Program-made: the position numbers and the translations under genes | Origin: a bacterium | GTDB lineage: Bacteria; Cyanobacteriota; Vampirovibrionia; Gastranaerophilales; JBAXKC01 | NCBI GenBank assembly: GCA_037137535.1 | Contig: JBAXKC010000002.1 | Location: 1 to 64,000 of the forward strand | Length of the DNA: 64,000 bases | Direction of reading: 5' to 3' | Shown here: positions 6,942 through 59,377 of the stretch, piece after piece | How the letters are laid out: every line of letters starts with the position of its first letter | Numbering within the stretch: the first letter of the stretch is position 1 | Notes under the pieces: model-generated | Seen by the model: only the letters and a program-made list of their open reading frames with translations | Database searches by the model: none | What the model was told of the DNA's origin: nothing

Positions 6942-6990
6942 GATAATTTTCTCCCATAGCATTTCTAATAATACTTAAATGTCTTTAGCA

Positions 6991-18024: not shown

Positions 18025-18025
18025 T

Positions 18026-19769: not shown

Positions 19770-19887
19770 TCTCACATACAATTTTTTAATCTATATTTTG
19801 ATTATACCAGTGTTTACTCTTCGTAAATCAAGTATTAGTAGTATAATTCATTTTATTGATGGTCTTCAAAAGAAAAATATAAAGCAA

Positions 19888-40101: not shown

Positions 40102-41626
<1,525 letters not shown>

Positions 41627-41627
41627 A

Positions 41628-42026
41628 TTATTCCTTAATCAGATTAAATTCTACTAACTTTTGAATGAGTTTTTCTTTGACGATTGGCTTAACAATATAA
41701 GCTTCACATTGTGATCTAAAGGCTTTTTTAATATTATCAGAGTCATCTAGAGCAGTTGTCATTATAACCTTTGTACCATCAAGATCATATTTGCCTTTTT
41801 CTTTTTCTATTTCTCTTATTTTATCAAGTGCAGTATGACCATCCATTTCAGGCATCATAATATCAAGACAAATGAGGTCATAAGCATCCCATTCATCCAA
41901 TGCAAACTTTACCGCTTCTACTGCTTCTACTCCGTTAACTGCTACATCACATTGACCATAAGCAGAAAGATATTTTATAAGAATTTTCCTGTTTACAAAG
42001 TCATCATCGACAATTAATATTTTCAT
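41628..42026 (-). CDS. Single-domain CheY-like response regulator
   Basis: ILIVDD, LDIMMP, TTA, YIVKP. Confidence 0.9.
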   Translation of the reverse strand: MKILIVDDDFVNRKILIKYLSAYGQCDVAVNGVEAVEAVKFALDEWDAYDLICLDIMMPEMDGHTALDKIREIEKEKGKYDLDGTKVIMTTALDDSDNIKKAFRSQCEAYIVKPIVKEKLIQKLVEFNLIKE

Positions 42027-42035
42027 ATTTTACTC

Positions 42036-42851
42036 CTATAAAATGTTTTTTAAGTATACAGTCGGTTGAACATATTCGAATTTATATTGCTTTTGATTAA
42101 GACTTTCTGAATGACCAATAAATAAAAGGCCCCCACCTGTAAGCACATTGTAAAACTTCTTTATAAGTTGTTCTTGAGTCTCAAAATTAAAATATATCAT
42201 TACATTTCTACAAAAAATAATGTCAAAAGTATTTTGAAAGGGAAAATGATCCATTAAGTTAAAGGTCCTAAAAGTTATTAATTGCTTTAACTCAGGAACT
42301 ACAGCGTATTCATCCCCGACACGAGTAAAATATTTTCCAAGAAAATATGGATTAATCATATCTTCAGGATCTAGTTTATAAGTAGCTTTTTGTGCTTTTT
42401 CTATTATACCTGCGCTGACATCTGTTGCTAAAATTTTAATATTAATACCTGGTGGTAAATATTCTTTTAAAACAATTGCCAAAGTATAAGCCTCTTTTCC
42501 ATTAGAACAAGCAGACGACCATACTCTTATTTCATTGTTTCTTAGTATTCTAGGATTTTTTTTAAAAATAGAATCAAGTTTATTTCTAATAAATTCAAAA
42601 TGGTTATCTTCTCTAAAGAAATTAGTTTTATGAATTGTAATCTCATCAACAAATTGAGACCAATGAATACTTTTAGAGTTATTGATAAGAAACGTATAAT
42701 ATTCCTGATAAGTTTCTATGTTAAGCGCTCTCATCAATTTACCGACTTTTGACTGAACCATTTCACGCTTTGCTTCACTTATATGAATACCTAACTTATC
42801 ATATATAAGCATTTTGAAGTTATCAAATTGTTTATCTTTTAGTTTTTCCAA
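42036..42851 (-). CDS. cheR: Chemotaxis protein methyltransferase
   Basis: TNFFRE, WSSACSNG.E.Y, FCRNVMIYF, IGHSES. Confidence 0.95.
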   Translation of the reverse strand: MEKLKDKQFDNFKMLIYDKLGIHISEAKREMVQSKVGKLMRALNIETYQEYYTFLINNSKSIHWSQFVDEITIHKTNFFREDNHFEFIRNKLDSIFKKNPRILRNNEIRVWSSACSNGKEAYTLAIVLKEYLPPGINIKILATDVSAGIIEKAQKATYKLDPEDMINPYFLGKYFTRVGDEYAVVPELKQLITFRTFNLMDHFPFQNTFDIIFCRNVMIYFNFETQEQLIKKFYNVLTGGGLLFIGHSESLNQKQYKFEYVQPTVYLKNIL

Positions 42852-42884
42852 AATTTTCTCACTTTATAAATAAAATTAAATAGC

Positions 42885-42911
42885 TGACAGGGCAATATAA
42901 TGCCCTGTCAG
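42885..42911 (-). terminator. Intra-operon hairpin after mcp
   Basis: CTGACAGGGCA/TGCCCTGTCAG. Confidence 0.55.
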
Positions 42912-42924
42912 AATACTTTTATTA

Positions 42925-44901
42925 TTAGAAGCCTTGCATATCATCTTCTAAAGGAATTACATCTTCAGGTCTAACTGTTTTTGTAGTTTTATTAGATGCA
43001 AAACTATTATTAGAAATTCTTCTGTTAATATTCGGAATTACTTTTCTTTGAAAAGATCTATCAGAAAGTGCAATTTGAGCTTGTTCCTGAATAGCGTTTG
43101 CGCCATTAACAAGTTGAACCAGAGAATTAACAATCTCTTTCATATTAACAGACTGTGAAGATAATTCTTCTGATGCTGAGGCACTTTCTTCAGCCGTTGA
43201 TGCATTAGATTGAACAACTTGTTCCATTTGTGAAATTGCTTTATTAATTTGAGCAATACCTTGAGCTTGTTCTTGACTTGCTGCTGCAACTTCGTCAAGA
43301 AGTTCACTAACTTTTTGAGCTTGATCATTAATTTCCGCTAATGATTCATTTACGTTTCTTGAAACATTAACACCCTGTTCTGATAAATGAATATTGCTTT
43401 CAATAATTTCAGCAGTGTCTTTAGCAGCTTGAGCACTTCTTTGAGCAAGATTTCTAACTTCTTCGGCAACTACTGCAAAGCCCATACCTGCTTCACCTGC
43501 TCTGGCTGCTTCAACAGCAGCGTTTAATGCAAGAATATTTGTTTGGAAAGCAATTTCATCAATTACTTTAATAATTTTAGCAATTTGATCACTTGATTTT
43601 TTAAGCTCTGCCATAGAAGTCATCATTTCTTGCATTTCATTATTGCCTTTGCTTGCTGCATCTTTGGCATGTTTTGCAAGAATAGCAGCTTGTTTAGTAT
43701 TTTCTGTATTTTGACGAACCATTGATGCAGATTGTTCTAGAGTTGATGATGTTTCTTGAATAGAAGCGGCCTGCTCAGCACTACCTTCTGCAAGTTGTTG
43801 GCTTGATGCCGATAATTGACCTGATGCCGAAGACACTTGGCTTGCACTTTCATTTAAGCCGTCAACAATTCTATTAATAGGTTTGGTTATGCCAATAACA
43901 ATCACCCAAGCTAAGAATGAACCAAGACCGACAGCTGCAATTAATCCAATTATCATTAATCCTGATGAAGCTGCAAGGGCAATAGCTGAACTTGAAGCAG
44001 AACCTTGTGTTGCTTTCATACCGACTTCAGCCGTATCTTTTGCTGCAGCTAATACTAAATCTGCCGTTTCACTGCGTTTTTTACTAATTTCCTGTAATTT
44101 TAACCATTTATCTAAAAATGAATTCATTGTTTCTTTGTAAACAGCTCCTGCCACTTTGTTTTTTGCTATTTGTGATTGCTCAAAAGCTGAGTTATTGAAT
44201 TGTTCGAGTTGCGCAAGTTTTGAAGAAATTGTATCAAAGTTTTTATTTGTATCTCTAATAATTTGAGGATTACGTTCCGCTTGGGATTTAAAAGTATCTC
44301 TTATAATCCAATTACCTGAGTCAATTAAATCATTAACAATACCAGCTTTTTGTGAGAATTCTTTAATTTTAGCTGTCTTACCTGATGCAATTCCTTTTTT
44401 TATTTCAGTATTTTGAAGAGCAAGATAATCATAACAAGTTTTCATATAATCAGCTGCAGATTGATTTAACTTATTTTGATCTTCGTTCATTGCCTTAATT
44501 GTACTTTCTGTATCATTAAGGTGTTGTATATACTCATCAACTTTAGTCTGCGCTTTAGCAGCATTCGCTTTTAAATCACTAAGATCAGAATATTTACTAC
44601 CTAATTCTGTTGCATCTTTTAAATAAGAATTTAATTTTTCCAAACCTTTTCTAGCTTCATCAAGATATTTTGTATCGTAAGTAAATCCATAACTTCTAGC
44701 TGCCAGCATAATAGAAAGTGATGTTCTTTCAACGTTATTTGCTACCGCAACAGAAGGAACATATTCATTTGCTAATTTACCTGATTGTATTTGTGCATTT
44801 TTCATTGCTAAAACACAAAAAGTGCCTAAAACTACAGAAATGAGTAGAATGGCTGCAAAGCCTGCAGATATTTTAAAACCTAATTTCATATTATTAAACA
44901 T
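42925..44901 (-). CDS. Methyl-accepting chemotaxis protein with periplasmic helical sensor
   Basis: 2 [23 protein letters not shown]-terminal tether-like ...[10 protein letters not shown]. Confidence 0.93.
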
Positions 44902-45391
44902 TCACTAAACCCACTTTCGTCTCACTACCTAATAAGCTAACTATTTCATCACAATTTATTATTGTTTCAATATTGAGAAGCATTACAACCTTACCTTTAA
45001 CTTTACCGAGTCCTGTTAAAAAACCTGTTTCAATCTTAGTGCTTCCATATTGTGGTGGTGGTTCTATCTCAGAAGATTGAATATTTACAACCTCTGATAC
45101 AGTATCAACGACAATACCCATAAGCCGTTTAAACTGATTAATATTTACTTCAACAACAATAATACATGTCCGTTCGTTATAATCTTTTTCAGACATTTTA
45201 AATTTGAGGCGTAAGTCCATAATAGGGATAATTTTGCCCCTTAAATTTATTACACCTTTAATAAATTCAGGGGTTTGCGGTACATGAGTAATTTCCATCA
45301 ATCCAATAATCTCTTTGACTTTGAGAATAGGAATTCCATATTCCTCATTGCCCAGCGAGAAAGTTAGATGTTTTCCATCTTGAATTTCCAC
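44894..45391 (-). CDS. cheW: Chemotaxis coupling protein CheW
   Basis: [35 protein letters not shown]. Confidence 0.95.
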
Positions 45392-48063
45392 TATTGTGCT
45401 CCTTCTTTTTCATATAAGTGCTCAATATCAAGTATTAATGAGACTTTTCCATCTCCTAAAATAGACATTCCGGAAACATATTTTAAATTTGAGAACTCTT
45501 GTCCTGTAGGCTTAACTACAATTTCTTGTCTTCCTATTACATTTCTCACAGGAAGAGCTTTAAATTTTTGATCTAATTCAACAATTACTATTAATCTAGG
45601 CTCTTCTTCAGGTTTTCCTGTCTTAAATAATTCTGATACTGAAATAATAGGCATAATGTCTTCTCTTACTTTAATCATAGACTTAATACCTTGAATACAG
45701 ACCCACTGCTCTTCTTTAGGTTGTAAAATTTGTTTAACGTTTACCGTAGGAATAATATAATTTGAACCTTCAATATCAACAATAGTTCCATTTAAAACGG
45801 CGTGATTTACTGGAATTTTAAGAATAAAGGTGCTACCTTGACCTTTAACACTATTTATCTCAAGTTTTCCTCCTATTTTTAATATTTCTGTTTTTACAAC
45901 ATCCATACCAACTCCTCTGCCTGAAATATTATTAGCTACTTCAACAGTGGAGAAGCCGGGTAACAAAATGAAATCCTGTATTTCTTTTTCACTATAATCT
46001 TTATTAGGATCAATAAGATTTTTTTCTAAGGCCTTATTATAAACTTTATCTATATCAATACCTTTACCGTCATCAGAAATTTCAATATAGATACTGCCTC
46101 TTTTATTGTATGCAAAAACTTGAACGTTACCTTGTGGAGATTTACCAGACTTAATTCTTTCTTCTTTTGTTTCAATTCCATGTGAAATCGAATTTTTGAC
46201 AAGATGAACTAGCGGATCTAGTATTTTTTCTGTGACAATTCTGTCAATTTCAGTATCATCACCTATTGTTGTAAAATTAATATCTTTACCGAGTTCATTA
46301 ATAGTATCTCTCGCAATTCTAGTAATTTTTTGAAATGTAGACTTTAGAGCAACCATTCTAAGAAACATTGAAATATTCTGTAAATCTTTTGTTATTCTTG
46401 TCATTCTTCCAAGATTGGCTATAAAGAAATTATCCGTTGCATATTTATTAATAGAATGTTGCTCAATTAAAGATTGTGCGATTATAAGCTCTCCAACCAT
46501 ATCAACAAGACTATCAACTTTACTGGTTGCAATTCTCATATATTCTTCTGATGAAGCATTTTGTTTAGTTTGTTGTACTTTTAAAGCACCTAGAGCTTCT
46601 ACTGATTTAATTTTATCTTCTTTAACAGCAACTTGACCAAATTTTAAATCTGGATATTGTTCTTTTTGAATTAATAGAACTTCATTTACATCTTCTTGAT
46701 CTAATATCTTTTGTTCAACAAGAATTTCTCCAATTTTTTTACCATTTAAGTTTATAGCTTCAACACAATGAAGTTCATAATATTCAATTTCTTGTAGATG
46801 ATGATTAATAGTGGAAATAAAACCTCTATCTTTTGCAATACTAATATCATCACATATTTTTTTTATAAAATCTGATGAAGCTAGAATTAGATTAACAATA
46901 GTCTTATCAACATCAATCTTTCCTTTTCTGCAACTATCCATTAAAGTTTCAGTTTGATGAGCAATTTTTTGAATTAAAGTTTGATTTACAAAACCTGCTA
47001 ATCCTTTTATAGTATGGAAAGCTCTAAACATTGAATGTATTATTTCAGCATCATCAGGTGTTTTTTCAAGAGAAAGAAGTTGCGTTTCAATTGATTCAAT
47101 ATGTTCTTTTGCTTCAAAGATGAAGTCCTCTAAAAACTCATCATCAACTGCATCTTCAGCATTAAGCTGTTCTTCTTGAATTTGCTCTTCTTCTTTAAGA
47201 TCTGCCAAATATTTATGAACATCATTTAGAAATTCATTATTTTTGATTAAAGTTAAATCATCACAAATCTTTTTTATTAAATCAACAGATTTGAAAAGAA
47301 AAGTTATAGTATTTGAATTTACTCTCATAGTTCTTTTTCTACAACAATCAAGTAAAGATTCAGTATCTTGAGATATTCTCTGAATTAAAACTTGCCCCGA
47401 AAAACCTGCTAAACCTTTAATAGAGTGAATATCTCGAAATAATAAGTGAATAAAGTTATCATCTTCTAAGTTTTTCTCAAGGTTAATTATATTTTTTTCA
47501 ATTGAATCAAGATGATCTTTGGCTTCAAGAACAAAATCTTCCCAAAATTCATCATTAGCAGCTTCGACTATTTCTATCGTCCCCTCGATAATATTATCTA
47601 AATTATTATTTAGCTCTCTTTCAAGGTTTATAAGGTGCTTTTGAATTTGATCGATAAAGTCTTCATCGGTGCTCATATCTAAATTTTCACAAATAGTCTT
47701 AATAAAATCTGCTGATAATAATAATAAATTAGTTATATTTACATTGACCTTACTTGTACCTTTTCTGCAACAATCCATCAATGTCTCAGTTTCATGGGCA
47801 ATTTTCTGTATTAAGGATTGTCCGACAAATCCTGATGAGCCTTTGATATTATGAAAAGCTCTAAACATTATGTTTATAGAATCGATATTATCAAAATCTT
47901 GCTCAAGAACAAGAGCATTAAACTCAATTATCTCGAGTTCCTCAATTGCTTTTATGATAAATTCAGGAAGAAATTCTTGATAATTAATAGTTTGAGTACC
48001 TACAAACATTTCCTCTTCAAGAAGGCTTCTTAATATATCATCAGGATTAAAATCTTCAGTCAA
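45391..48063 (-). CDS. cheA: Chemotaxis histidine kinase CheA with three HPt domains
   Basis: FHNIKG, IHSIKG, FHTIKG; dimerisation domain; DPLVHLVKNS, GRGVGMDVV; CheW domain. Confidence 0.93.
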   Translation of the reverse strand: MTEDFNPDDILRSLLEEEMFVGTQTINYQEFLPEFIIKAIEELEIIEFNALVLEQDFDNIDSINIMFRAFHNIKGSSGFVGQSLIQKIAHETETLMDCCRKGTSKVNVNITNLLLLSADFIKTICENLDMSTDEDFIDQIQKHLINLERELNNNLDNIIEGTIEIVEAANDEFWEDFVLEAKDHLDSIEKNIINLEKNLEDDNFIHLLFRDIHSIKGLAGFSGQVLIQRISQDTESLLDCCRKRTMRVNSNTITFLFKSVDLIKKICDDLTLIKNNEFLNDVHKYLADLKEEEQIQEEQLNAEDAVDDEFLEDFIFEAKEHIESIETQLLSLEKTPDDAEIIHSMFRAFHTIKGLAGFVNQTLIQKIAHQTETLMDSCRKGKIDVDKTIVNLILASSDFIKKICDDISIAKDRGFISTINHHLQEIEYYELHCVEAINLNGKKIGEILVEQKILDQEDVNEVLLIQKEQYPDLKFGQVAVKEDKIKSVEALGALKVQQTKQNASSEEYMRIATSKVDSLVDMVGELIIAQSLIEQHSINKYATDNFFIANLGRMTRITKDLQNISMFLRMVALKSTFQKITRIARDTINELGKDINFTTIGDDTEIDRIVTEKILDPLVHLVKNSISHGIETKEERIKSGKSPQGNVQVFAYNKRGSIYIEISDDGKGIDIDKVYNKALEKNLIDPNKDYSEKEIQDFILLPGFSTVEVANNISGRGVGMDVVKTEILKIGGKLEINSVKGQGSTFILKIPVNHAVLNGTIVDIEGSNYIIPTVNVKQILQPKEEQWVCIQGIKSMIKVREDIMPIISVSELFKTGKPEEEPRLIVIVELDQKFKALPVRNVIGRQEIVVKPTGQEFSNLKYVSGMSILGDGKVSLILDIEHLYEKEGAQ

Positions 48064-48081
48064 AATTTAAAATCTCCAATA

Positions 48082-48450
48082 TTAAATTAATGTTTTATTT
48101 AATTTCTCCACAAATTTATCAGGAGTAAACGGCTTTAATAAAAAATTTCTCACGCCAACCGTAATAGCTTCTCGAATAATAGACTCTTGCCCCATCGCAG
48201 AAACCATAAGTATTTTTTTATCAGGGTGTATCTCAAATATTTTTTTAGCAGCTTCTATACCGTTTAGTTCAGGCATAGTAATATCTAAAGTTATCAAATC
48301 ATAATTATTAGCTTTATCCATTTCAATAGCTTTTAGTCCATTTGGTGCATATTCAATATTAGAATAACCATTATCCTTGAAAATCTTTTGAATCATTGAA
48401 AACATAAATGCTTGGTCATCAACAACGAGTATTTTAATATTTTTTTCCAT
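48082..48450 (-). CDS. cheY: CheY-like response regulator
   Basis: VVDD, LDITMP, SAMGQ, KPF. Confidence 0.85.
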   Translation of the reverse strand: MEKNIKILVVDDQAFMFSMIQKIFKDNGYSNIEYAPNGLKAIEMDKANNYDLITLDITMPELNGIEAAKKIFEIHPDKKILMVSAMGQESIIREAITVGVRNFLLKPFTPDKFVEKLNKTLI

Positions 48451-48516
48451 AATTTTAATACCTTTATAAAGCAGACCATTCAATTATATAGGTTTTATTA
48501 TTAAATGTCTCCAAAT

Positions 48517-48984
48517 TTATTCTATTGAATATGCAATATTGAATTTAGAGGTACCTAGCTTAAAAAATATTTTTTTTGATGGAGCCCTACTTATCATCAT
48601 AAACATTTTACTACCTGTTACAATTGTAGGCGGAGTAATATCAACAAGCTCATTAATAGCTTCAGCAACTTTTCCAACGGTATTTCCACCAAGCATGTTT
48701 GTAAACTCAGCTAGAGCACTTTTGCCCATAGAGTCAAGCTCTAAAACCTCTGCACCACCCATCATTCCTGAAATAATACTTAATGCAGTCTCTTTCGTCA
48801 GGCCAAGCACTATATTTCCATTTAACCCTTTGGTTAAACCTATTAATACATTAACTTCTTCTCCAGAATTTAATGATTTCTCCGACAATTCGCACAAAAA
48901 TTTTGGTTCAAGGCCAAACATTGGTAAAAGCTCTGAACATGCATTAATTATCGGATCTTTTAAACTAGAAATTTTTGCAGACAA
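48517..48984 (-). CDS. cheX: CheX-family phosphatase
   Basis: IGLTKGL.G, ALAEFTNM (ExxN), ITPP. Confidence 0.8.
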   Translation of the reverse strand: MSAKISSLKDPIINACSELLPMFGLEPKFLCELSEKSLNSGEEVNVLIGLTKGLNGNIVLGLTKETALSIISGMMGGAEVLELDSMGKSALAEFTNMLGGNTVGKVAEAINELVDITPPTIVTGSKMFMMISRAPSKKIFFKLGTSKFNIAYSIE

Positions 48985-48987
48985 AGT

Positions 48988-49464
48988 TTATACCTCTTCA
49001 ATACCTATATCAATAATAAAACTACCTTGTTCTCCTGAATAATAAGCAACTTCCGAATGTATTGTCGGTGATAATATTTCAAGATTTTCAGCAGAAAAAA
49101 TAGCAGGAGGACTAAGCCAGAATTCTCTGTTTTGATACTCATTATTTATATATGTAGTAGCTCTACCACAAAACATATTTGCAAACTCTGCTACATACAA
49201 ATACATATCTTTTGGATCTTCGAAAAAATCACCAAAATTCATTGCCACTGCGAAATTACTTGCTGTTTCAAAGTCACTTTCAAGAAGAATTCGACCTTTC
49301 GTATTTCCACATATTCCAATAATAATGGCAACCTTTGCATTATCTTTTAAAATATTTTCTGAGACGACATTGTACTCTGAATCAACAAGCTCTTTTGTAA
49401 TTTCAGTAAATGCTTTTTTCACATAATCAATAAATTTTTCAATTTTAATAACTTCAATAGACAT
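48988..49464 (-). CDS. cheX: Second CheX-family protein
   Basis: IGICG..KG, VAEFANM (ExxN), LSPP. Confidence 0.75.
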   Translation of the reverse strand: MSIEVIKIEKFIDYVKKAFTEITKELVDSEYNVVSENILKDNAKVAIIIGICGNTKGRILLESDFETASNFAVAMNFGDFFEDPKDMYLYVAEFANMFCGRATTYINNEYQNREFWLSPPAIFSAENLEILSPTIHSEVAYYSGEQGSFIIDIGIEEV

Positions 49465-49465
49465 A

Positions 49466-49828
49466 TTAAAGACCTAACAATTCATTTGCAGCCGCAATAA
49501 GTTCATCAGGTTTAAAGGGTTTTGTTACAAAATGGGTTATACCTAATGCTTTTGCTTCATTTACTAATACATCATCACCCATCGCGCTCAACATAATTAT
49601 TTTGACATTTTTATTAATCTCAAATAATCTTGCAGCAGTAGCTATACCATCCATTATTGGCATAGTAACATCCAGCGTGATAAGATCAGGCTGATATTTC
49701 TCATACATTTCTAAGCCTATTTGTCCATTTGATGCATTATCAACTACTTCAAATGATTTTGGCTCTAATGCTCTTTTAACAGCTTTGTAGATAAAAGGGG
49801 AATCATCAATTACAAGAACCTTAACCAT
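49466..49828 (-). CDS. cheY: CheY-like response regulator
   Basis: IDDSPF, LDVTMP, SAMG, KPF. Confidence 0.85.
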   Translation of the reverse strand: MVKVLVIDDSPFIYKAVKRALEPKSFEVVDNASNGQIGLEMYEKYQPDLITLDVTMPIMDGIATAARLFEINKNVKIIMLSAMGDDVLVNEAKALGITHFVTKPFKPDELIAAANELLGL

Positions 49829-50549: not shown

Positions 50550-53500
50550 ATGAAAATTGACTTGGGTTTTAATTCATTCAAGGCTAATATAACTACTAAA
50601 AATAAAGAAAACTCAAATGCAATTGATCAGAACGCTGACAAAATAAATAATGCCAATATAACAACTCAGGTGCAAACTTCTAAACCTCAATCTAATCCAA
50701 TTACAAATGTAATTAATGGATTAAATCTTCATAAAGTTAATAGTAATAGACTTAAACCTTTAGATTCGGATCAATTTAAAACACCTACTAAATCTAATAT
50801 TAATCAAAATCAACATAATATTACTAATTCAGGTGTTTCTAAGCCTGATATTATTTCTAATGCGCCATTGATAAAAAAAACAGGTACAGCAATTAAACAA
50901 ATAATATCTGCTATTGATAACACTGAAAAATCAATTAATAATCTTAAAATACAGCCCGATAAAATAGAAAGCATAATATCAGAGGAAAATGAACTACCAA
51001 TTCATAGTTCAGATTTATTAGAAATAAGTGCATCTGACAAAACAACAAAAACTCCAATATCAAAACAAATTATTGATGCAATTAATAATACAGAAAAATT
51101 AATTACCCCAAAAAGTGATTTTTCTGATAAAAATAAATCTTTAAAAAATGATATACAAATAGCTACAAGCAAAACGAACTCAACATTGCAAAATCAAGAA
51201 GTAAATGTACTAAATAATGAGATAAAATCAATTAACGGTCATGTTGATTTTCAAGATGATGTTAAACCCACTACAGATAAAACTGCAATTTCAAGCATAA
51301 AAAGACAACAACCTATATCACAGCAAATTATTGATACAATTAACAATACAGAAAAATTAATTTCACCTAAAAATCGACCAGATGTTAATGATGTGGCTAA
51401 TTCTAGTCAAATACAAATGGTTGATGATTCGATTATTCCTGCCAATAAAGAAATAAAAGAACTAAATAAAGAAGTTAAAATTAATAATGAGAAAAAAACC
51501 GAACCAATATCTAAACAAATAATATCTGCTATTAATAATACTGAAAAATTAATTTCGACTAAAAATCAAACAGAGATTAATAATCTGGAAAATTCAAATC
51601 AAATAGTAGAAGTTGATGATTCTATTATTCCTAATATGCATCAAAAAAATGATACAAATATTGATGAAAAAACCAAAGTAGATCAATCAAGTTTGGCAGT
51701 AGATAATACTAATAAAAAAGCAGCTACAACCACGCTCAAACAAATTATGAGTGCAATTGATAATACAGAAAAATTAATTAATCCAAAGAATCAATTAAAT
51801 CCTTCTAAAATTAACCTATCTGAAGATATTAAACCAAAAAAAATACAGATTTCTGCAATTCCAAATTTGGTGGATATAAAAGAAAATATTCAAATTGCAG
51901 GTAAAGAAGTAAAAATAGTTGCTAATAAAAATATGACATTTGAATCATGTCCAGTTGCAACATGGAATATTAAAATTGACGAAGATAAGTCAGTTAAAAA
52001 GCAACAAATTCAGTTTGCAAACGGAAGTCAAAACGCATTAATTACGACATATAAATACGAAGCACCGCTAAATGCTCCTGATTTAGATATTGAAGTTCTT
52101 GCTAATAAAAATCCGAATAATTTTGATACAAAATTAAATATAAATATCAGTAGTTCAACAGTTAATAAAAACGAATCACTGAAAGAAAATGAAATAAATA
52201 AAAAAATTATTACAATGAAACCAAATGAAACAGTTTCTATATCAGTTTCTAACACAGAAAAAAATATAAATATCAAACCCGAACAAATAATATCTAGACA
52301 AGACCAAGGAATTGAAAATGCCTTAATAAAAGCAAGGATTCCAACCACTAATGAAGCAAAAGAAGCTTATAGTTTAGCTAAACAGTTTATTTCCATAGGT
52401 AAGGAAATAAATTCGAATTCTGCAGCAGATAAAAATAATAATGCTGATAAAGAAGCTATAACGTTGCTTCCAACTTATGCATTAACACTTAAAAGAAATG
52501 ACATGACAAGAAATTCACTAAAAAATTACTCCGAATATGTAAAAAATGTGCTTTTAACTCCTGATTTAAAGCCAAAAGATAATGTTCATGATGATATTAT
52601 CAAAATTGCAATGCTTTGGAGCTCTTCATTAAATGATTTTAGTAATCAAACTCAATCGCTTGAAGATTTAGACGTGATAAAAGAGCAATATAGTTTAATT
52701 AAAAACATTATGAATATTCAAATTGAAGAAACAAAAAATAGTGAAAAAAGTAATGTTATAGACAATGATGGTTTAATAAAATTAACAAATTCTCAAAACA
52801 CGTTAACATCAGTAAGTTCAACAGAAAATTGTAATATCAATGCCGAAGGGAAATCTTTTGAAGCAAATGTACTTTGGTATAACGGATTAAAATCATTATC
52901 AGACATTGCTAAAACACTTGGTTACACAAGTGAACACGAAAAATTTTCAACAATGGCAAATATAGTTCAACAAAATTTAATGAAGTTCTGGGACGAGAAT
53001 CAAAATGGATTCAATTCTTTTATTGATAAATCAAATCCAGAACTATCAAAAATTGATAATACTTCACTACTGACAGCTTTAACTGTTACTAACAGACCAT
53101 TTGTAAATAAGCCTGAATTAGAAGCTGCAATTTTAAATAATGCCGAATCTCAAATATTTCCTGAAGAAGATAATCTGAATTCACATGTAAAAACAATACC
53201 AAGAGAAAAAACGGCTCAAGCAGCTCAGTATTTTGACGCTCTTATGAACTTTCAAAAAACCAATCCTGAACTTGTTTCGGATATAGAAATTAGCGAAAAT
53301 ATTGCGCCAATAATAAATAATCTCAAAAAGGATATGAATTTATTATTATCAATGAATAAACCACTAAATGGAATAGTTATACCTAATATAGATGCAATTC
53401 AATTGACTAATAGTAATGCTTGGACAGCAACAACAGTTCTTCAATTGATTAAAGGAACAGAGAATAAAATTTATGATGAAAATAAAAAAATAAAAACAGT

Positions 53501-53993
53501 TGAAGAAAATAAAATTCAACAAAAAAATGCTGATGTTATAACTTCTGAACAGCCATCTAAAATTGTGGTACAAAAACCTGAATACACAAATAAGCCTATA
53601 GCTGCATCTGAAGAAGACAGTAAAATTTCAGCTTTAGAAAAAGAAATAATAACAGAGCCAAATATTCAAATTAAAAAAGCAATAATACCAACTACAAAAC
53701 AAGTAGTAACAGAAAGTATAAAAATTGCAGCTCAAAAAGAGTTAAAAGATGCTCAAAGTAAACTGATAATAGAAAAACTTAAAGAGTCCTCAATCAATGA
53801 AGGAGCTGTTAATAATCCTGAAATTGCTAAATCAAGAAGAACTGAAATCATTAAATTCACTAAAAAATCTGATAAAGAAAAAGACAATAAAGAAGAGCTT
53901 GCTGATGGTGTATTAGCTGAAATAATGAGCACTTTTGGCGACCTTATGCAAAGTGTATTTAGCGGAATAACTAACGGAATATCCGGCAAATAA
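50550..53993 (+). CDS. Large orphan protein: SF-motif N-terminus, five internal repeats, degenerate glycogen-debranching (amylo-alpha-1,6-glucosidase-like) domain
   Basis: FNSFKA; 5x (P/A/T)I.KQII.AI.NTEKLI; EGKSFEANVLWYNGL...KFWDE resembles GDE GKxVExNALWYNAL. Confidence 0.6.
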   Translation: MKIDLGFNSFKANITTKNKENSNAIDQNADKINNANITTQVQTSKPQSNPITNVINGLNLHKVNSNRLKPLDSDQFKTPTKSNINQNQHNITNSGVSKPDIISNAPLIKKTGTAIKQIISAIDNTEKSINNLKIQPDKIESIISEENELPIHSSDLLEISASDKTTKTPISKQIIDAINNTEKLITPKSDFSDKNKSLKNDIQIATSKTNSTLQNQEVNVLNNEIKSINGHVDFQDDVKPTTDKTAISSIKRQQPISQQIIDTINNTEKLISPKNRPDVNDVANSSQIQMVDDSIIPANKEIKELNKEVKINNEKKTEPISKQIISAINNTEKLISTKNQTEINNLENSNQIVEVDDSIIPNMHQKNDTNIDEKTKVDQSSLAVDNTNKKAATTTLKQIMSAIDNTEKLINPKNQLNPSKINLSEDIKPKKIQISAIPNLVDIKENIQIAGKEVKIVANKNMTFESCPVATWNIKIDEDKSVKKQQIQFANGSQNALITTYKYEAPLNAPDLDIEVLANKNPNNFDTKLNINISSSTVNKNESLKENEINKKIITMKPNETVSISVSNTEKNINIKPEQIISRQDQGIENALIKARIPTTNEAKEAYSLAKQFISIGKEINSNSAADKNNNADKEAITLLPTYALTLKRNDMTRNSLKNYSEYVKNVLLTPDLKPKDNVHDDIIKIAMLWSSSLNDFSNQTQSLEDLDVIKEQYSLIKNIMNIQIEETKNSEKSNVIDNDGLIKLTNSQNTLTSVSSTENCNINAEGKSFEANVLWYNGLKSLSDIAKTLGYTSEHEKFSTMANIVQQNLMKFWDENQNGFNSFIDKSNPELSKIDNTSLLTALTVTNRPFVNKPELEAAILNNAESQIFPEEDNLNSHVKTIPREKTAQAAQYFDALMNFQKTNPELVSDIEISENIAPIINNLKKDMNLLLSMNKPLNGIVIPNIDAIQLTNSNAWTATTVLQLIKGTENKIYDENKKIKTVEENKIQQKNADVITSEQPSKIVVQKPEYTNKPIAASEEDSKISALEKEIITEPNIQIKKAIIPTTKQVVTESIKIAAQKELKDAQSKLIIEKLKESSINEGAVNNPEIAKSRRTEIIKFTKKSDKEKDNKEELADGVLAEIMSTFGDLMQSVFSGITNGISGK
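50887..51788 (+). repeat. Five dispersed ~55-60 bp coding repeats
   Basis: CAAAT(A/T)AT...GC(A/T)ATT(A/G)ATAA(C/T)AC(A/T)GAAAAAT near 50890, 51055, 51312, 51504, 51733. Confidence 0.8.
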
Positions 53994-54004: not shown

Positions 54005-54748
54005 TTAATCCTCTATTTCAACTTTTGCATTGGGATTAAAGGGATTAGTCCGCAATATAAGTGAATATACAAAAGGATAATCAGTTCTTAAATGGTTAAC
54101 ATATAATAACCATTGGCTTATTAGTGAAACATAAACTCTTTTTATATCATTTGAAATATGCTCATAGTCATTTTTTGATAAATTATCAATATCTTTTCTA
54201 TATTCAAGTTCTTGCATTAAATGACAAACTGCCCACAACAAATCACTAAAAAGTTCATGTTCTAATAGGTTTTGATTTTCTAAAAGACTCAACAAGAAAC
54301 TTTTATTATTAATTAGTATATCTTTAATTTTTTTTATAATTATAGAGTCATTTTTAATTTTATAATTATGGTTCTCTATGTTTTTCTTTACAGAAATAAA
54401 ATCTTTTTCTTTCCATTTTGCAGAAATATTCAATAACTCTCTTATTTTATCAAGATTTATATCACTATTAGAGAGTATTTTTAATAATTCTACTCCTAAT
54501 TGAGTAAAAAAAGCACCGATAACCATATACATTTTATTTTGAAGTGCATTTTTCTCTCTAACTGCAATTATTTTGGTAATAATTAAAGTCACAATTAAAA
54601 TTTGCAATGGCAAGAAAGCTAAATCCTGAAATAAGTAAAAAAAGGTGTCCTGTGGTTTATTAAAAATAAAAATCTGAAGAACGTAGATTCCTGTTGAAAT
54701 GAAAACCAGTAAAAAGCCCATTAATATATATTTCAGCAATTTATTCAT
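54005..54748 (-). CDS. Conserved-type hypothetical membrane protein (2 TM)
   Basis: DLAFLPLQILIVT, VIGAFF, LLENQNLLEHE.FSDLLWAV.HL..EL. Confidence 0.7.
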   Translation of the reverse strand: MNKLLKYILMGFLLVFISTGIYVLQIFIFNKPQDTFFYLFQDLAFLPLQILIVTLIITKIIAVREKNALQNKMYMVIGAFFTQLGVELLKILSNSDINLDKIRELLNISAKWKEKDFISVKKNIENHNYKIKNDSIIIKKIKDILINNKSFLLSLLENQNLLEHELFSDLLWAVCHLMQELEYRKDIDNLSKNDYEHISNDIKRVYVSLISQWLLYVNHLRTDYPFVYSLILRTNPFNPNAKVEIED

Positions 54749-54950: not shown

Positions 54951-55868
54951 TTGAAAACTATAAATGAAAAATCTAAGCTTTCTCTCATAAAAAAAACAGC
55001 TGATGGAATAAGAAAAAGAGTTCTTGAGCACACTATCACCAATAATGGCGGTTATTTGAGTCAGGCATGCTCTTCTGCCGAAATATTCGCATCACTTTAT
55101 GAAGAAATCATGAATTTAGGTTCAATAGAAGCACCAATGATGCCTGAACAATTCGTTAGTGTCCCGAATAAAAACTTTCCTTTCAAAACAGGGGCTGATT
55201 TTAATGGTAAAAAGTCTGAAGAAACAGATAGGTTTATACTATCGCCAGCACAATATGCTTTAGTTCTATATGCAGCTTTAGTTGAAGTAGGGCGTATGGA
55301 CAATGAAGGAATGCTTCAATTCAACAAAGACGGAAGTACCGTTGAAATGATCGGTGCAGAACATTCACCCGGAATGGAAGTTATGACCGGCTCATTAGGG
55401 CAAGGATTAAGTCAGGCTTCAGGCATTGCAATGGCAAGAAAATTAAAGGGTGAAACCGGTAATGTATGGGTATTTATGTCAGACGGAGAGTTTCAGTCCG
55501 GTCAAAACTGGGAAGCTATTCAAGCAGCTTCATTTCATGAATTAAGCAATCTTAAAATTATTGTTGATGTAAACAGACAACAATGCGATGGAGCAATTAG
55601 CTCTGTTATGACTATTGAACCCTTTGATACTAGATTATCGTCTTTTGGCGCTCATGTAGTTTCACTTAACGGGCATGATATTCAAGGAATAATTGACGCA
55701 GCAAATGTCGATACGGGAAATAAACCACTTGTTATTCTTGCAAATACTAACCCATCAGAAGGATTTGAACTTTTAAATAAAAGAGCTCCGAAGCTTCATT
55801 ATGTTAGATTTACAAGTGCCGAAGAAAAAAGTATGTATGAAAAAGTCCTTGCGGACATAAATAAATAA
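54951..55868 (+). CDS. Transketolase-like enzyme, N-terminal (ThDP-binding) subunit, atypical active site
   Basis: DRFILS, TGSLGQG, SDGE..G..WEA...N ThDP motif; canonical His positions replaced. Confidence 0.85.
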   Translation: MKTINEKSKLSLIKKTADGIRKRVLEHTITNNGGYLSQACSSAEIFASLYEEIMNLGSIEAPMMPEQFVSVPNKNFPFKTGADFNGKKSEETDRFILSPAQYALVLYAALVEVGRMDNEGMLQFNKDGSTVEMIGAEHSPGMEVMTGSLGQGLSQASGIAMARKLKGETGNVWVFMSDGEFQSGQNWEAIQAASFHELSNLKIIVDVNRQQCDGAISSVMTIEPFDTRLSSFGAHVVSLNGHDIQGIIDAANVDTGNKPLVILANTNPSEGFELLNKRAPKLHYVRFTSAEEKSMYEKVLADINK

Positions 55869-55881
55869 TTTAGGAAGAATA

Positions 55882-56889
55882 ATGGAAGTATTATCAAAAG
55901 TTCACGCTAAAAACCTTATAAAATGGGCAGAAGATAAAAAAGAAGTAGTTGTTTTATCAGCTGATTTAACAAGCTCTACAGAAGCAGATTTATTTAGAGA
56001 CACTTACCCTGAAAGATTCTTTTCGATGGGAATAGCAGAACAAAATATGCTAAGTTTTGCAGGTGGAATGGCACGAGAAGGATTTATTCCTTTTATTCAC
56101 ACTTTTGCCGTTTTCATATACAGAAGAGCTTACGATCAAATTGCTATGTCTGTTGCATATCCAAACCTTCCTGTAAAAATGTTTGGATTTTTGCCTGGTA
56201 TAACAACACCTGGTGGAGCTACTCATCAGGCAATAGAAGATATTTCCGTAATGCGCTCGCTTCCTAATATGACAATCTTAGAATGTGGAGATGCAACGGA
56301 AGTTGAATCCGTTACAGAACTTGCCTATTCAATTGATGGACCTGTTTATATAAGAATGTTAAGAGGCGAAATACCTAGATTATTTGATAAATCAGAACCT
56401 ATGGAATTTAAAAAGCCAAGATTACTTTCATCAGGAACTGATATAACGATAATTTCAAGCGGAATATGTACAGAAGAAGCAATGAGGGCAATTACCGCAA
56501 TTAAAAAACGAGGAATATCAGTTTGTCATTACCATATTTCAACATTAAAGCCGTTTGATTTTGACAGTATTGCTGATTCTGTAAAAAACACTAAATATGG
56601 TGTTATAACCATGGAAAATCATTCTGTAATTGGTGGATTAGGCAGTATTATTGCCGAAGGTATTGCAGAAGCAGGAATAAGCACTAAATTCAAAAAAATA
56701 GGACTTCGTGATACGTTTGCTCATGGTGGAAGCAAAAGCTATTTAATGAGCAAATATAAAATTGATGCGATTGCATTAATTGAAGAAGTTGAAAAAATAA
56801 TTGGCGAAAAGCTTAACATTCAAGAGGCCGAACTTGCAAAGGTTCATATTACAGCCGTTCATAGTTTGGCAAAAGCGGAGGCTCTCTAA
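55882..56889 (+). CDS. Transketolase-like enzyme, C-terminal (pyrimidine-binding) subunit
   Basis: SADL..S, GIAEQNM, RAYDQI, GATHQ, ENHS..GGLG. Confidence 0.88.
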   Translation: MEVLSKVHAKNLIKWAEDKKEVVVLSADLTSSTEADLFRDTYPERFFSMGIAEQNMLSFAGGMAREGFIPFIHTFAVFIYRRAYDQIAMSVAYPNLPVKMFGFLPGITTPGGATHQAIEDISVMRSLPNMTILECGDATEVESVTELAYSIDGPVYIRMLRGEIPRLFDKSEPMEFKKPRLLSSGTDITIISSGICTEEAMRAITAIKKRGISVCHYHISTLKPFDFDSIADSVKNTKYGVITMENHSVIGGLGSIIAEGIAEAGISTKFKKIGLRDTFAHGGSKSYLMSKYKIDAIALIEEVEKIIGEKLNIQEAELAKVHITAVHSLAKAEAL

Positions 56890-58008
56890 ATGATTTCTAA
56901 TGATCGTTTTATTGTCGAATATTTAATCAAAGGAACAGAAAAAGAAGCCTATGCTAAGGCAGAAGACATTTGCGTAGAACAGACTATAGAATTTCCTAAA
57001 GATTTAGTAACAAGTCAACTAATTCTTGATCAAATAATTGGTAAGATTGATTCATTTGAAAAAGTAGCCGAGGGTTACTTAGCAAAAATCAGCTTTGCAA
57101 TAGAAATAACATCTTTTGAATTTACTCAACTATTAAACGTTATTTTTGGAAATATCAGTATAAAACCAGGCATAAAAGTTCAAAAAATTGACCTGCCAGA
57201 CTCTTTATTAAAACATTTTAGCGGACCTCGTTTTGGAAGAGAAGGAATAAGAAAACTTTTAAATGTCTATGACAGACCATTACTTTTTACTGCTTTAAAA
57301 CCGATGGGTTTATCAGCAAAAGAACTTGGGGAATTAGCTTATAAATTTGCACTAGGCGGAATTGACATAATAAAAGACGATCATGGACTTACAAATCAAA
57401 TTTTTGCACCATTTAACGACAGAGTAAAATACTGCGTTGAAGGTGTAGAAAAGGCTAATGAGGAAACAGGTTTAAACTGTATTTACGTTCCCAATATCAC
57501 AGCATCGTATGATGATACAATGACAAGAGCTGTAAAAGCTAAAGAACTTGGTGCAAAAGGGATTATGCTTGCACCTGCTATTACAGGACTTGATGCAATA
57601 AAAAAACTAGCTGACGATGATAATATGAATCTACCTATTTTTAGTCACCCAGCCTTTCAAGGAAGCTACTTAACCTGTTCTGAAAGTGGATTTTCTCATT
57701 ATGCACTTTTAGGTCAAATTACAAGATTAGCTGGAGCAGATGGAGTTATATATCCAAACTTCGGTGGTCGTTTTGCGTTTACAAAAGAAGAATGTAACAG
57801 TATTGCAAATGGTACTGCTGTTAAAATGGGTGATATAAAAGAAATATTTCCTTGCCCAGGCGGAGGAATGAGCCTTGATAAAATACCTGAAATGGTTGAA
57901 GTATACGGAAAAGAAGTTATTTTCTTAATGGGGGGCGGATTATTCAGACACAGCGATGATCTGGTCGAGAATTGTAGATATTTTAAGAAAATGGTTCAAC
58001 AATTTTAG
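56890..58008 (+). CDS. rlp: RuBisCO-like protein (form IV), KDDH type
   Basis: EQT, FGNIS, GPRFG..G.R, LKPMG, GGIDIIKDDHGL, HPA, GGRF, PGGG, GG. Confidence 0.9.
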   Translation: MISNDRFIVEYLIKGTEKEAYAKAEDICVEQTIEFPKDLVTSQLILDQIIGKIDSFEKVAEGYLAKISFAIEITSFEFTQLLNVIFGNISIKPGIKVQKIDLPDSLLKHFSGPRFGREGIRKLLNVYDRPLLFTALKPMGLSAKELGELAYKFALGGIDIIKDDHGLTNQIFAPFNDRVKYCVEGVEKANEETGLNCIYVPNITASYDDTMTRAVKAKELGAKGIMLAPAITGLDAIKKLADDDNMNLPIFSHPAFQGSYLTCSESGFSHYALLGQITRLAGADGVIYPNFGGRFAFTKEECNSIANGTAVKMGDIKEIFPCPGGGMSLDKIPEMVEVYGKEVIFLMGGGLFRHSDDLVENCRYFKKMVQQF

Positions 58009-58039: not shown

Positions 58040-59377
58040 TCAAGCAAACCTATCAATATACAATTTAATATCGAATTTACTTTTTAGTCCGTTATAACTC
58101 ATATAACGGACTTTTCCAAATACTTCTCGATCTTTCCAAGCTCGGTCATGAAGTCCACCTATTGACCATAAAATACCAACATATCCATTTGGATCTCTAC
58201 CATCAAGTTCATATTTATCATTAAGGTAAATGGCTATTTTAATTGCATCTTCAGGTGATCGTGTCCATTCAAGAATTTTTTTTGCCCAATACATTCTTAG
58301 ATAACCATGCATTTTACCTTTTATTTTCATTTCATTCTGACAAGCATTCCATATTAAATCATGCGTTTTTGCACTTTCAAACTCTTCCAACGAATAAATA
58401 TAACTTCTTATATCACTTCTATGATTATTTAAACTTTGCTTTGCCCAGTTAGGTAGTCCATTAAAATTATCATAATCAGAGTTATAATAACAAAAATTAT
58501 CTGATAACTCTTTGCGTACAATTAATTCTTCTAAAAAACTTTCTTTAGATAACTCAAAATTTGATTTATTTACTTCAATAGCAATTCGTTGTGAAGAAAT
58601 TTGCCCAAAATGTAAATATGGTGATAAGTTTGACAAAGCTGGAACATTTGGATTATTTCTATCTTTAGAATAATTACAAAGCTTTTCTTCAATAAAACTC
58701 TGCAATAATAATTTAGCTTCTTCTTCACCTGATTTCAGACCGTCAACAGGTTTTACTTCAAAATTGATTTCTAAATTTCTATAAACTAAATCCCAATTAT
58801 TAATATATTTATATTTAGAACAATCATATTCATTTGGATTAACAGAAGGAAATTCTTCTAAAAACTCGGGCAATTGACGCTTAATTTTATTTCTAATCGT
58901 ATAAGCACCATATTCTAACTTTGGTGATGCCTCCCATACCGGAACAATATTATGAGTATCCACTTCAAAAAAAGGAATATAAATTTTATTTAGAATATTA
59001 TTTTTCCACTCTCTTTTTATTTTTAATGGATCAAAATCTGTAATCAAACATGAAGCTTGTACCTCAGAAATAAAATTTGATAATTCTTCAACAGGATTAC
59101 CACTCAATAAAATAAAAGGAAAGTTATAATCAGTAAACTTCTTTTCTAACTCGATTAATCCATTTATCATAAAATCATATTGCTTAAATGTTGCATCTAA
59201 AAAATTTGGAACAAGACAAAAGCACACAATAACAGGTTGTTTGAATTTATTAGACAGTTCTTGAGCATAAACTAAAGCCCAATTATCACTAAATCGCTGA
59301 TCACGACTAATCCATAAAACAATAGGACCTGTTTTAAATTCTTTATCATTAAGTTTTCTTATACGTTTTAAATTCAT
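58040..59377 (-). CDS. phrB: Class II CPD photolyase
   Basis: RDQR..DNWAL, SNLSPYLHFGQIS, RKELSDNFC, RMYWAKKILEW, DGRDPNGY. Confidence 0.93.
   Translation of the reverse strand: MNLKRIRKLNDKEFKTGPIVLWISRDQRFSDNWALVYAQELSNKFKQPVIVCFCLVPNFLDATFKQYDFMINGLIELEKKFTDYNFPFILLSGNPVEELSNFISEVQASCLITDFDPLKIKREWKNNILNKIYIPFFEVDTHNIVPVWEASPKLEYGAYTIRNKIKRQLPEFLEEFPSVNPNEYDCSKYKYINNWDLVYRNLEINFEVKPVDGLKSGEEEAKLLLQSFIEEKLCNYSKDRNNPNVPALSNLSPYLHFGQISSQRIAIEVNKSNFELSKESFLEELIVRKELSDNFCYYNSDYDNFNGLPNWAKQSLNNHRSDIRSYIYSLEEFESAKTHDLIWNACQNEMKIKGKMHGYLRMYWAKKILEWTRSPEDAIKIAIYLNDKYELDGRDPNGYVGILWSIGGLHDRAWKDREVFGKVRYMSYNGLKSKFDIKLYIDRFA

Follow-up and report, generated by a model that had tools for sequence, protein, structure and literature searches.

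A split transketolase beside a RuBisCO-like protein

We analysed a stretch of 64,000 nt (hereafter the window), corresponding to positions 1 to 64,000 of the forward strand of contig JBAXKC010000002.1 (GenBank assembly GCA_037137535.1), from a bacterium of the Gastranaerophilales. The subject here is a set of three consecutive genes, at positions 54951-58008, that encode the two halves of a split transketolase, named TK-N and TK-C, and a RuBisCO-like protein (RLP). An original prediction, made from the sequence alone, had described the three genes as tightly linked and had proposed for them a new branch in the salvage of two by-products of S-adenosylmethionine (SAM), methylthioadenosine (MTA) and 5′-deoxyadenosine. 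The TK-N gene (54951-55868, + strand) has a TTG start codon and codes for 305 aa matching Pfam Transketolase_N (PF00456, 72.6 bits). Between its TAA stop codon (55866-55868) and the ATG (55882) of the TK-C gene (55882-56889, + strand; 335 aa, Pfam Transket_pyr and Transketolase_C) there is a spacer of 13 nt (55869-55881, + strand), in which an AGGAAG ribosome-binding site preceding TK-C was read directly. The TAA stop codon of TK-C (56887-56889) is followed at the very next base by the ATG of the RLP gene (56890-58008, + strand), whose product of 372 aa matches Pfam RuBisCO_large (PF00016, 122.9 bits). Hence the coordinates of the open reading frames (ORFs) and their stop and start codons bore out the gaps of 13 and 0 nt that had been described.

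All the RLP and transketolase motifs quoted in that prediction were present in the translations. In the RLP these are KPMG (residues 137-140), KDDHGL (162-167), HPA (253-255) and GGRF (292-295), at positions corresponding to the catalytic residues of RuBisCO; together with the PF00016 match, they describe a RuBisCO large-subunit fold without the carboxylase set of residues. The best match in the PDB was 3qfw (E = 4.9e-67, 230 bits, residues 4-368), presumably the DeepYkr RLP (RLP1) of Rhodopseudomonas palustris; the runner-up scored 163 bits, and the 4nas, 3fk4 and MtnW structures 150-163 bits. KDDHGL, HPA and GGRFA were common to the two sequences in the alignment with 3qfw, and KDDH, HPA and GGRF were invariant among 66 RLP relatives.

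The RLP scored below every NCBIfam cut-off. The rejected candidates were a MtnW/YkrW 2,3-diketo-5-methylthiopentyl-1-phosphate enolase (NF007095, 244.8 bits against a cut-off of 409; TIGR03332, 188.7 against 513.6), a true RuBisCO, which was ruled out by the motifs and by the cut-offs (form III RuBisCO model, 176 against 497), and an apionate RLP of the OiaX/OiaT kind (NF042437, the OiaX model, 78.5 bits against 700, over residues 65-215 only), against which the genomic context speaks as well. Among 7999 candidates scored, 4916 were relatives with E ≤ 0.001, and their public names say merely that they are RuBisCO large-subunit-like proteins. Those at 60-65% identity include heliobacteria, Propionispora, Acetivibrio and Syntrophomonadaceae, and relatives 56-65% identical adjoin cupins of the Rru_A2000 type. 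By these sequence measures, the RLP belongs to the form IV DeepYkr/Rlp1 kind; its earlier assignment, from KDDH, to the Rhodospirillum rubrum type agrees with the 3qfw match and with the relatives lying beside such cupins. We infer that it is a 5-methylthioribulose-1-phosphate 1,3-isomerase.

TK-N and TK-C found their best PDB matches in the split transketolase of Carboxydothermus hydrogenoformans (6yak, E = 2.6e-35, and 6yaj, E = 2.8e-64, respectively), with which they share the two-gene layout, the fold and the cofactor residues; the AlphaFold2 model of TK-N (pLDDT 87.5) reached a TM score of 0.77 against 6yak. Human TKT and, for TK-C, 1-deoxyxylulose-5-phosphate synthase (DXS) were further PDB matches. 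Both halves remained below the cut-offs of the transketolase model NF004559, built for the fused form (TK-N 172.4 and TK-C 218.7 bits; cut-off 488), and of the DXS model TIGR00204 (TK-C 171.8 and TK-N 23.5 bits; cut-off 465.95). Public databases call the family by the generic name "transketolase".

Precisely, TK-N reads GGYLSQ at residues 33-38, LSPAQY at 97-102 and EMIG at 132-135, and keeps the cofactor motif SDGE...N (D178, G179, N208), while TK-C reads PGGATHQ at 110-116. Relative to 6yak, human TKT and E. coli TktA, TK-N also carries an insertion of about 30 aa (residues ~56-88), with an invariant Pro, Phe and Gly; this comparison confirmed both the insertion and the retained thiamine diphosphate (ThDP) motif, which had been noticed before. 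Individual sites were mapped by aligning 46 TK-N and 41 TK-C relatives with TktA and Dxs of E. coli. With TktA numbering for the reference sites, TK-N has Tyr35 at the His26 site, Gln101 at His66 and Met133 at or beside His100, and TK-C has Phe103 at His461 and Gly111 at Asp469, the five E. coli residues being catalytic or substrate residues. The Phe at the His461 site is a fifth change, absent from the original prediction.

Among the relatives, His26 is replaced by Tyr in 46/46, His100 by Met in 45/46, His461 by Phe in 41/41 and Asp469 by Gly in 41/41; the His66 site is occupied by Gln in 36 and by His in 10 of the 46. The TktA sites that are retained comprise G114, L116, D155, G156 and N185 (diphosphate and metal binding), E411 (the cofactor Glu), F434, F437, H473, R520, S385 and D381, with Lys or Arg at R358. 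TK-C of the window thus keeps Glu53 (the cofactor Glu), Ser32, His115 and Arg161, and also F75 and F78. Compared with canonical transketolases (E. coli TktA, yeast, human), the enzyme has in common the cofactor residues and the phosphate-site Arg, Ser and Arg, and differs in four family-wide site changes, the His66 to Gln change of a subclade, the insertion, a C-terminal tail and new His and Cys residues. In other words, it has the ThDP fold, the metal/diphosphate motif and the activating Glu of a transketolase, and lacks the His26/His66/His100/His461/Asp469 set. These changes are common to relatives 52-73% identical to the window proteins and, being conserved in this way, are not due to chance decay.

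We also surveyed TK-N more widely, in a library clustered at 50% identity, in which 49 of the best 150 representatives covered all three TK-N sites. These sites read Tyr-His-Met in 15, Tyr-His-Leu in 11 and Tyr-Gln-Met in 3 of the representatives, and the insertion was present in 39/49. On these alignments, the whole family is marked by Tyr in place of His26, Met or Leu in place of His100, the Phe and Gly of TK-C, the insertion and the TK-C tail, and His66 to Gln is a subclade trait. The change from His to Gln in LSPAQY, to which importance had been given, is therefore real in the window and in 36/46 close relatives, and is found in only 3/49 of the wider representatives. The tail, ~28 aa at the C-terminus of TK-C, is predicted to be disordered in the monomer (pLDDT 52/41); its conserved last residues are AKAEAL in split forms, and the complete fusions described below end in ERPEDL or a closely similar sequence. 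New invariant residues are H138, C40 and C212 in TK-N and H8 and H73 in TK-C. The invariant Cys residues foreign to ordinary transketolases are C40 and C212 of TK-N and C196 of TK-C; C212 aligns with E. coli Ile189, two residues beyond the metal-ligand Ile187, and an invariant Cys might act as an acyl or methylthio acceptor.

In yeast transketolase, the C1 hydroxyl of the donor is held by His69 and His103, the C3 hydroxyl is acted on by His30 and His263, the C2 hydroxyl of the acceptor is held by Asp477, and the phosphate is held by Arg359, Ser386, His469 and Arg528. Two of the four phosphate ligands remain in the present family, the third (Arg358) is Lys or Arg, and the fourth, His461, is lost. 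The pattern of residues (Tyr, Met, Phe and Gly, with cofactor sites intact) suggests that the cofactor chemistry remains and that the C1 pocket is non-polar: as read from the alignments, the pocket near donor C1 is now less polar, with most of the phosphate site retained alongside the cofactor chemistry. The originally proposed loss of the residues that bind the C1 hydroxyl held for the His100 site, which is changed throughout the family; it did not hold for the His66 equivalent, kept in most of the wider family, and it is accompanied by the loss of the phosphate-site His and of the Asp.

Partner genes and fusions of the RuBisCO-like protein

We considered the best 80 of 468 RLP relatives, with one genome scanned per species and flanks of up to 10 kb. 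A locus was considered as TK-type if a TK-C homologue ended ≤400 nt upstream of the RLP gene, and this was the case for 60/80 loci, with TK-C homologues 59-73% identical. TK-N was also seen in 57 of these 60, and in two of the other three the contig ends short. In the third, L019 (1590-6509 of a 6.6-kb contig from a Brocadiia metagenome-assembled genome), an unrelated ORF of 890 aa lies upstream of TK-C and no TK-N was found on the contig; its RLP is among the nearest relatives of the window RLP in the tree. The cupin-type loci were 13/80, having a Cupin_2 protein of 145 aa within 6 kb (within 1.9 kb in 12 of them) and no transketolase. The best PDB match of this cupin was 3jzv, "Rru_A2000" (E = 1.2e-40), and its loci often included an O-acetylhomoserine sulfhydrylase (OAHS; TIGR01326, 589 bits against a cut-off of 495; 7/13) or a small CoA-binding protein (5/13). 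Neither partner was present in 7/80 loci, and both partners in 0/80. As predicted, no cupin adjoins the triad: there was none in the window, nor in the flanks of any of the 60 TK-type loci.

The TK-type loci span at least nine phyla, i.e. Bacillota (39 loci), Chloroflexota (8), Nitrospirota (5), Vulcanimicrobiota (2) and, with one locus each, Planctomycetota, Calditrichota, Acidobacteriota, Pseudomonadota and Verrucomicrobiota. In a maximum-likelihood tree of 81 RLPs, the TK-linked and the cupin-linked proteins interleave: the TK label needed 12 changes on the tree, of which at least 7 are required by branches having a Shimodaira-Hasegawa-like approximate likelihood ratio test (SH-aLRT) value ≥ 95, and the closest relative of the window RLP by identity (65%) is the RLP of a cupin-linked locus, L001. 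No alignment column separated the 61 TK-linked from the 13 cupin-linked RLPs at the 80%/80% level. The either/or partners, the interleaved tree and the lack of a separating column point to one orthologous RLP with two alternative partners. Pairwise identities of TK-C and RLP were correlated over 27 loci (r = 0.80; Mantel test, 0/999), as befits genes inherited together.

The same alternation was seen within single proteins. We inspected the 47 RLP relatives (clusters) longer than 651 aa, and in 23 of them a Cupin_2 domain follows the RLP (one such cluster, P0293, has 640 members). In another 12, of 1020-1360 aa, a whole transketolase follows it, in the order RLP, Transketolase_N, Transket_pyr, Transketolase_C; the five named sources are all diatoms (Cyclotella atomus, C. 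cryptica, Thalassiosira exigua, T. profunda and Skeletonema marinoi). All the RLP-transketolase fusions retain KDDH, GGRF and the transketolase signature, and in the tree their RLP domains fall into a single group. Fusions of the RLP with one partner or the other would be expected if both of them use the RLP product. In P0124 (730 aa), which lacks the first ~77 residues of the RLP, a single ORF runs from RLP through TK-N to the start of TK-C, with 45% (RLP) and 52% (TK-N) identity to the window proteins. The diatom fusions (P0308-P0318 and P0124) carry an N-terminal extension of ~100-170 aa, to which a DUF7726 is added in Skeletonema. The other 12/47 clusters comprise one ThiF fusion (P0273, with ThiF ahead of the RLP), one fusion to a regulator of the MarR/SorC type with a sugar-binding part (P0284) and ten with the RLP domain alone recognised; several proteins of 660-756 aa (P0274-P0280) have ~300-480 unassigned residues beside the RLP.

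A survey of the neighbourhoods for mtn genes, which had been suggested with the original prediction, gave mtnK in 6/60 TK-type loci and mtnA in five of these. Precisely, mtnK (TIGR01767, 445 bits against 275) and mtnA (TIGR00512, 449 against 279) lie just upstream of the triad in L025, L028, L031, L040 and L070, and L067 has mtnK without mtnA. In one locus (L064) a gene for an MTA/methylthioinosine phosphorylase (239 bits, cut-off 223) directly follows the RLP gene, and in L008 the RLP gene is followed by metX and then by OAHS and cysteine synthase genes. A nucleosidase resembling futalosine hydrolase is encoded upstream of the triad in L013, and the same ORF cluster is upstream in L041. Class II aldolase genes were near four triads and one cupin locus. 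Taken as gene neighbourhoods, these contexts tie the triad to MTA. In L008 a SAM riboswitch (RF00162, 87 bits, 11455-11555) stands between RLP and metX, a position which suggests that the methionine genes after the triad are regulated by SAM and that the triad has no such leader.

The richest cluster, at 4000-15200 of L031, contains mtnK, mtnA, a DeoR regulator, TK-N, TK-C and RLP, and then genes for an LsrF-like 3-hydroxy-5-phosphonooxypentane-2,4-dione thiolase (493 bits against 297), a ribulose-phosphate 3-epimerase homologue, a FucU-like mutarotase, a Zn alcohol dehydrogenase and a class II aldolase. A possible role of the epimerase is to turn the ribulose-type by-product of the RLP into the xylulose form. 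No conserved downstream enzyme revealing the C2 product was found near the triads, where there were only scattered alcohol dehydrogenases, a pyruvate:ferredoxin oxidoreductase and the LsrF-like thiolase.

A candidate salvage branch and its alternatives

The closest known system is the MTA-isoprenoid shunt of Rhodospirillum rubrum and Rhodopseudomonas palustris, in which Rru_A1998 is described as the Deep-Ykr RLP and Rru_A2000 as the 1-methylthioxylulose-5-phosphate sulfurylase (passages of PMC4958253). According to passages of PMC4958253 and PMC5893883, the Deep-Ykr RLP (Rru_A1998, RPA2169) converts 5-methylthioribulose-1-phosphate into 1-methylthioxylulose-5-phosphate and 1-methylthioribulose-5-phosphate at 3:1, the cupin (Rru_A2000, RPA2170) then gives, with glutathione, 1-deoxyxylulose-5-phosphate (DXP) and a methylthio-glutathione adduct, and OAHS rebuilds methionine from methanethiol. 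The window has the same kind of RLP (KDDH, HPA, GGRF, ~370 aa), whose close relatives adjoin Rru_A2000-type cupins and OAHS sulfhydrylases, but it has a remodelled split transketolase in the place of the cupin. It holds, therefore, the RLP half of the shunt and not the RLP plus cupin system that leads to DXP. Unlike in the shunt, DXP is probably not the product, and glutathione would not be needed.

On balance, we favour the reading that the three genes form one operon and that the triad is an alternative, cupin-free branch of SAM by-product salvage of the MTA-isoprenoid-shunt type. The transketolase probably replaces the cupin and cleaves 1-methylthioxylulose-5-phosphate. This agrees with the originally proposed remodelled ThDP enzyme in the cupin's place and new branch for MTA and 5′-deoxyadenosine, which the split of the loci (60 with transketolase, 13 with cupin, 0 with both), the interleaved tree, the mtn and met neighbours and the fusions support at the level of sequence. 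In such a branch, 5-methylthioribulose-1-phosphate would be made elsewhere in the genome by MtnP, or by MtnN and MtnK, plus MtnA. The RLP would isomerise it to 1-methylthioxylulose-5-phosphate, as homology and synteny suggest, and may also turn 5-deoxyribulose-1-phosphate into DXP. TK-N/TK-C would then take the 1-substituted pentulose-5-phosphate as donor, cut it between C2 and C3 and free glyceraldehyde-3-phosphate, a step that we propose from the alternation of transketolase and cupin among the loci, from the fusions and from the changes in the active site.

The subsequent fate of the C2 fragment bound to ThDP, CH3S-CH2-C(OH)=, is more speculative, and two outcomes seem likely. The favoured one would be β-elimination of methanethiolate, leaving acetyl-ThDP and then acetate or acetyl-phosphate; the main alternative would be protonation and exit as 2-(methylthio)acetaldehyde, as in the dihydroxyacetone phosphate (DHAP) shunt, a release with which the scattered alcohol dehydrogenases near some triads are consistent. 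Elimination is favoured because it would do the job of the cupin, i.e. free methanethiol, would need no glutathione and has precedents in phosphoketolase and sulfoacetaldehyde acetyltransferase (Xsc). These are ThDP enzymes in which a leaving group is eliminated from the C2 enamine to give acetyl-ThDP, and their likeness to the proposed step is a mechanistic analogy only. The methanethiol would be re-used by an O-acetylhomoserine sulfhydrylase such as that encoded at 14342-15625 of the window, and the module would recover sulfur as well as carbon, with no need of oxygen or of the glutathione that the cupin uses.

A more detailed version can be put forward only tentatively. In this version TK-N/TK-C would be a ThDP lyase of a new kind, a "methylthio-phosphoketolase" making glyceraldehyde-3-phosphate, methanethiol and acetate or acetyl-phosphate from 1-methylthioxylulose-5-phosphate in complex with the RLP, perhaps docked by the conserved [K/R]-x-E-x-L end of the TK-C tail. 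It would serve a methionine salvage that depends on neither oxygen nor glutathione and spares carbon and possibly energy. Anaerobes of at least nine bacterial phyla would use this route, and diatoms would have it as a single fused polypeptide.

Several points weigh against the cupin-free branch. The data fit elimination, aldehyde release and true transfer alike. The RLP activity is ascribed on homology and synteny, and the tree was made of relatives of the query only. A methylthio group at C1 does not explain why Asp469 and the phosphate-site His461 are lost, and His66, one of the two ligands of the C1 hydroxyl, is retained in 39/49 of the wider TK-N representatives (Gln in 3/49). The genes mtnK and mtnA are near 6/60 TK-type loci only, and most triads, that of the window included, stand alone. 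In the 64-kb window, mtnA, mtnK, mtnP, a nucleosidase, a cupin, a class II aldolase and metX were all absent, both among ORFs of at least 100 aa and in tblastn searches with proteins of related loci, so that it is other genomes that connect the triad to MTA. There was no Rfam match in the window, hence no SAM riboswitch before the triad, and in the 7 loci scanned the sole SAM riboswitch is the one preceding metX in L008, with none before a triad. The 80 loci are the closest ones and mostly from Bacillota, and the pattern may be less clean further out. The counts cover the flanks, and a cupin elsewhere in TK-type genomes is possible. Finally, L019 has TK-C and RLP without TK-N upstream.

Among the other explanations, we regard as unlikely that the module serves mainly the disposal of 5′-deoxyadenosine, with the RLP making DXP, the transketolase cleaving it in the manner of DXS into glyceraldehyde-3-phosphate and hydroxyethyl-ThDP (and thence acetaldehyde), and MTA as a side substrate or not used. 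DXS is likewise a ThDP enzyme that handles a C2 unit lacking the C1 hydroxyl together with glyceraldehyde-3-phosphate. TK-C aligns well with it, with a TIGR00204 score near its transketolase score (171.8 against 218.7 bits) and with DXS structures among its PDB matches, and the GG(H/Y)L and RAYDQ motifs resemble those of DXS. The non-polar Met/Leu and the Tyr at C1 would suit a methyl as well as a CH2-S-CH3 group. MtnK/MtnA-type enzymes also process 5-deoxyribose in the DHAP shunt, alcohol dehydrogenases are near the triad in L017, L031 and L034 (and an ORF cluster of the L017 type lies downstream in L077), and a radical-SAM gene follows the triad in L025. However, DXP made by the RLP could feed isoprenoid synthesis directly, so that its cleavage seems wasteful; the other partner of the RLP is a methylthio-specific cupin, often with OAHS; and metX-OAHS and MTA phosphorylase genes adjoin some triads. 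The passages of the literature consulted gave no test of 5-deoxyribulose-1-phosphate on a DeepYkr RLP. The enzyme also differs from DXS in being made of two chains, in having Gly at the equivalent of DXS Asp427 and Tyr at that of His49, and in the cleaving direction in which it is expected to run. The DHAP shunt itself (MtnK/MtnP, MtnA and the class II aldolase Ald2, acting on MTA and 5′-deoxyadenosine) shares the upstream steps and may share the C2 product, but the cleavage proposed here would follow 1,3-isomerisation, use ThDP chemistry and yield glyceraldehyde-3-phosphate, not DHAP.

A true transferase, moving a methylthio-acetyl-equivalent or glycolaldehyde C2 unit between sugar phosphates without release of sulfur, seems quite improbable; it might rebalance the 3:1 xylulose and ribulose products of the RLP or extend a methylthio- or deoxy-sugar chain. 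In its favour, the enzyme has the fold and cofactor residues of a transketolase, the phosphate-site Arg, Ser and Arg are retained, a ribulose-phosphate 3-epimerase homologue follows the triad in L031, and a cyanobacterial transketolase reportedly makes 7-deoxysedoheptulose from 5-deoxyribose. Yet sulfur would stay locked in the sugar, so the cupin would not be functionally replaced, Asp469 (which fixes the C2 hydroxyl of the acceptor) and His26 are lost in all members, and no follow-up enzyme is conserved near the triad. We give very little credence to a transketolase step ahead of the RLP, or to a place for the enzyme in an unrelated sugar route (apiose/apionate, branched or acid-sugar) with the RLP as its decarboxylase or isomerase. 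Apiose pathways do use split transketolases and RLPs (passages of PMC6302742). Around the triad there are an LsrF-like thiolase, an epimerase, a mutarotase and a DeoR regulator in L031 and an ABC sugar transporter in L040. These sugar genes, however, adjoin mtnK and mtnA, and no acid-sugar kinase or dehydrogenase is conserved near the triad. The pairing known from apiose and apionate catabolism (AptAB transketolase, OiaX/OiaT RLPs) also differs in that the window RLP fails the OiaX model by the score and the span given above, its nearest solved relative is 3qfw, its own group pairs with Rru_A2000-type cupins, and the context is that of methionine and MTA. The apiose/apionate alternative of the original prediction was consequently not supported.

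If the cupin-free branch is as we propose, its pathway is a variant of a known one and its enzyme activity is probably new. A full-text literature search gave no paper joining a transketolase to a DeepYkr RLP or to 1-methylthioxylulose-5-phosphate, or dealing with the diatom fusion; an earlier passing mention of the gene context is possible. MTA and 5′-deoxyadenosine arise in every cell that uses SAM, and their recycling by anaerobes is still being worked out. The branch would be a third fate for 5-methylthioribulose-1-phosphate, beside the cupin route and the aldolase (DHAP) route, and would give a function to many genes labelled just "transketolase" and "RuBisCO large subunit". The module occurs widely, in 60 of the 80 nearest loci and in at least nine phyla, its single-protein form in diatoms ties it to marine sulfur and methanethiol biology, and for enzymology it offers a transketolase scaffold with a rebuilt substrate pocket and a retained cofactor chemistry.

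Surroundings of the three genes

The genes flanking the triad in the window are unrelated to it. Upstream, on the minus strand and divergent from the triad, an ORF of 247 aa (54005-54748) has no Pfam or NCBIfam match and is not conserved beside the triad in other loci. It is preceded by a gene for a protein of 1147 aa (50550-53993, + strand), the sole recognised part of which is a GDE_C (amylo-alpha-1,6-glucosidase) domain at residues 640-867, and by a chemotaxis operon (40102-49828, - strand) encoding CheB, CheD, a receiver, CheR, MCP, CheW, CheA with three Hpt stretches, a receiver, two CheX/CheC-like phosphatases and a receiver. A photolyase gene (58040-59377, - strand) lies downstream of the triad, with a PadR regulator also near. 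A scan for promoters and terminators was uninformative, the number of sites not being above that of shuffled sequence.

The O-acetylhomoserine/O-acetylserine sulfhydrylase gene (14342-15625, + strand; TIGR01326, 674 bits against a cut-off of 495) is 40 kb away from the triad and unlinked to it; its product could take up methanethiol from the proposed pathway. A superoxide dismutase is encoded at 6303-6962. At 16693-19781 (- strand) there are genes for two CdhD-like proteins (CdhD being the delta subunit, of the corrinoid Fe-S type, of CO dehydrogenase/acetyl-CoA synthase) and for an ATPase of the AAA_26/CbiA type; these genes suggest an anaerobe with parts of a Wood-Ljungdahl-type pathway.

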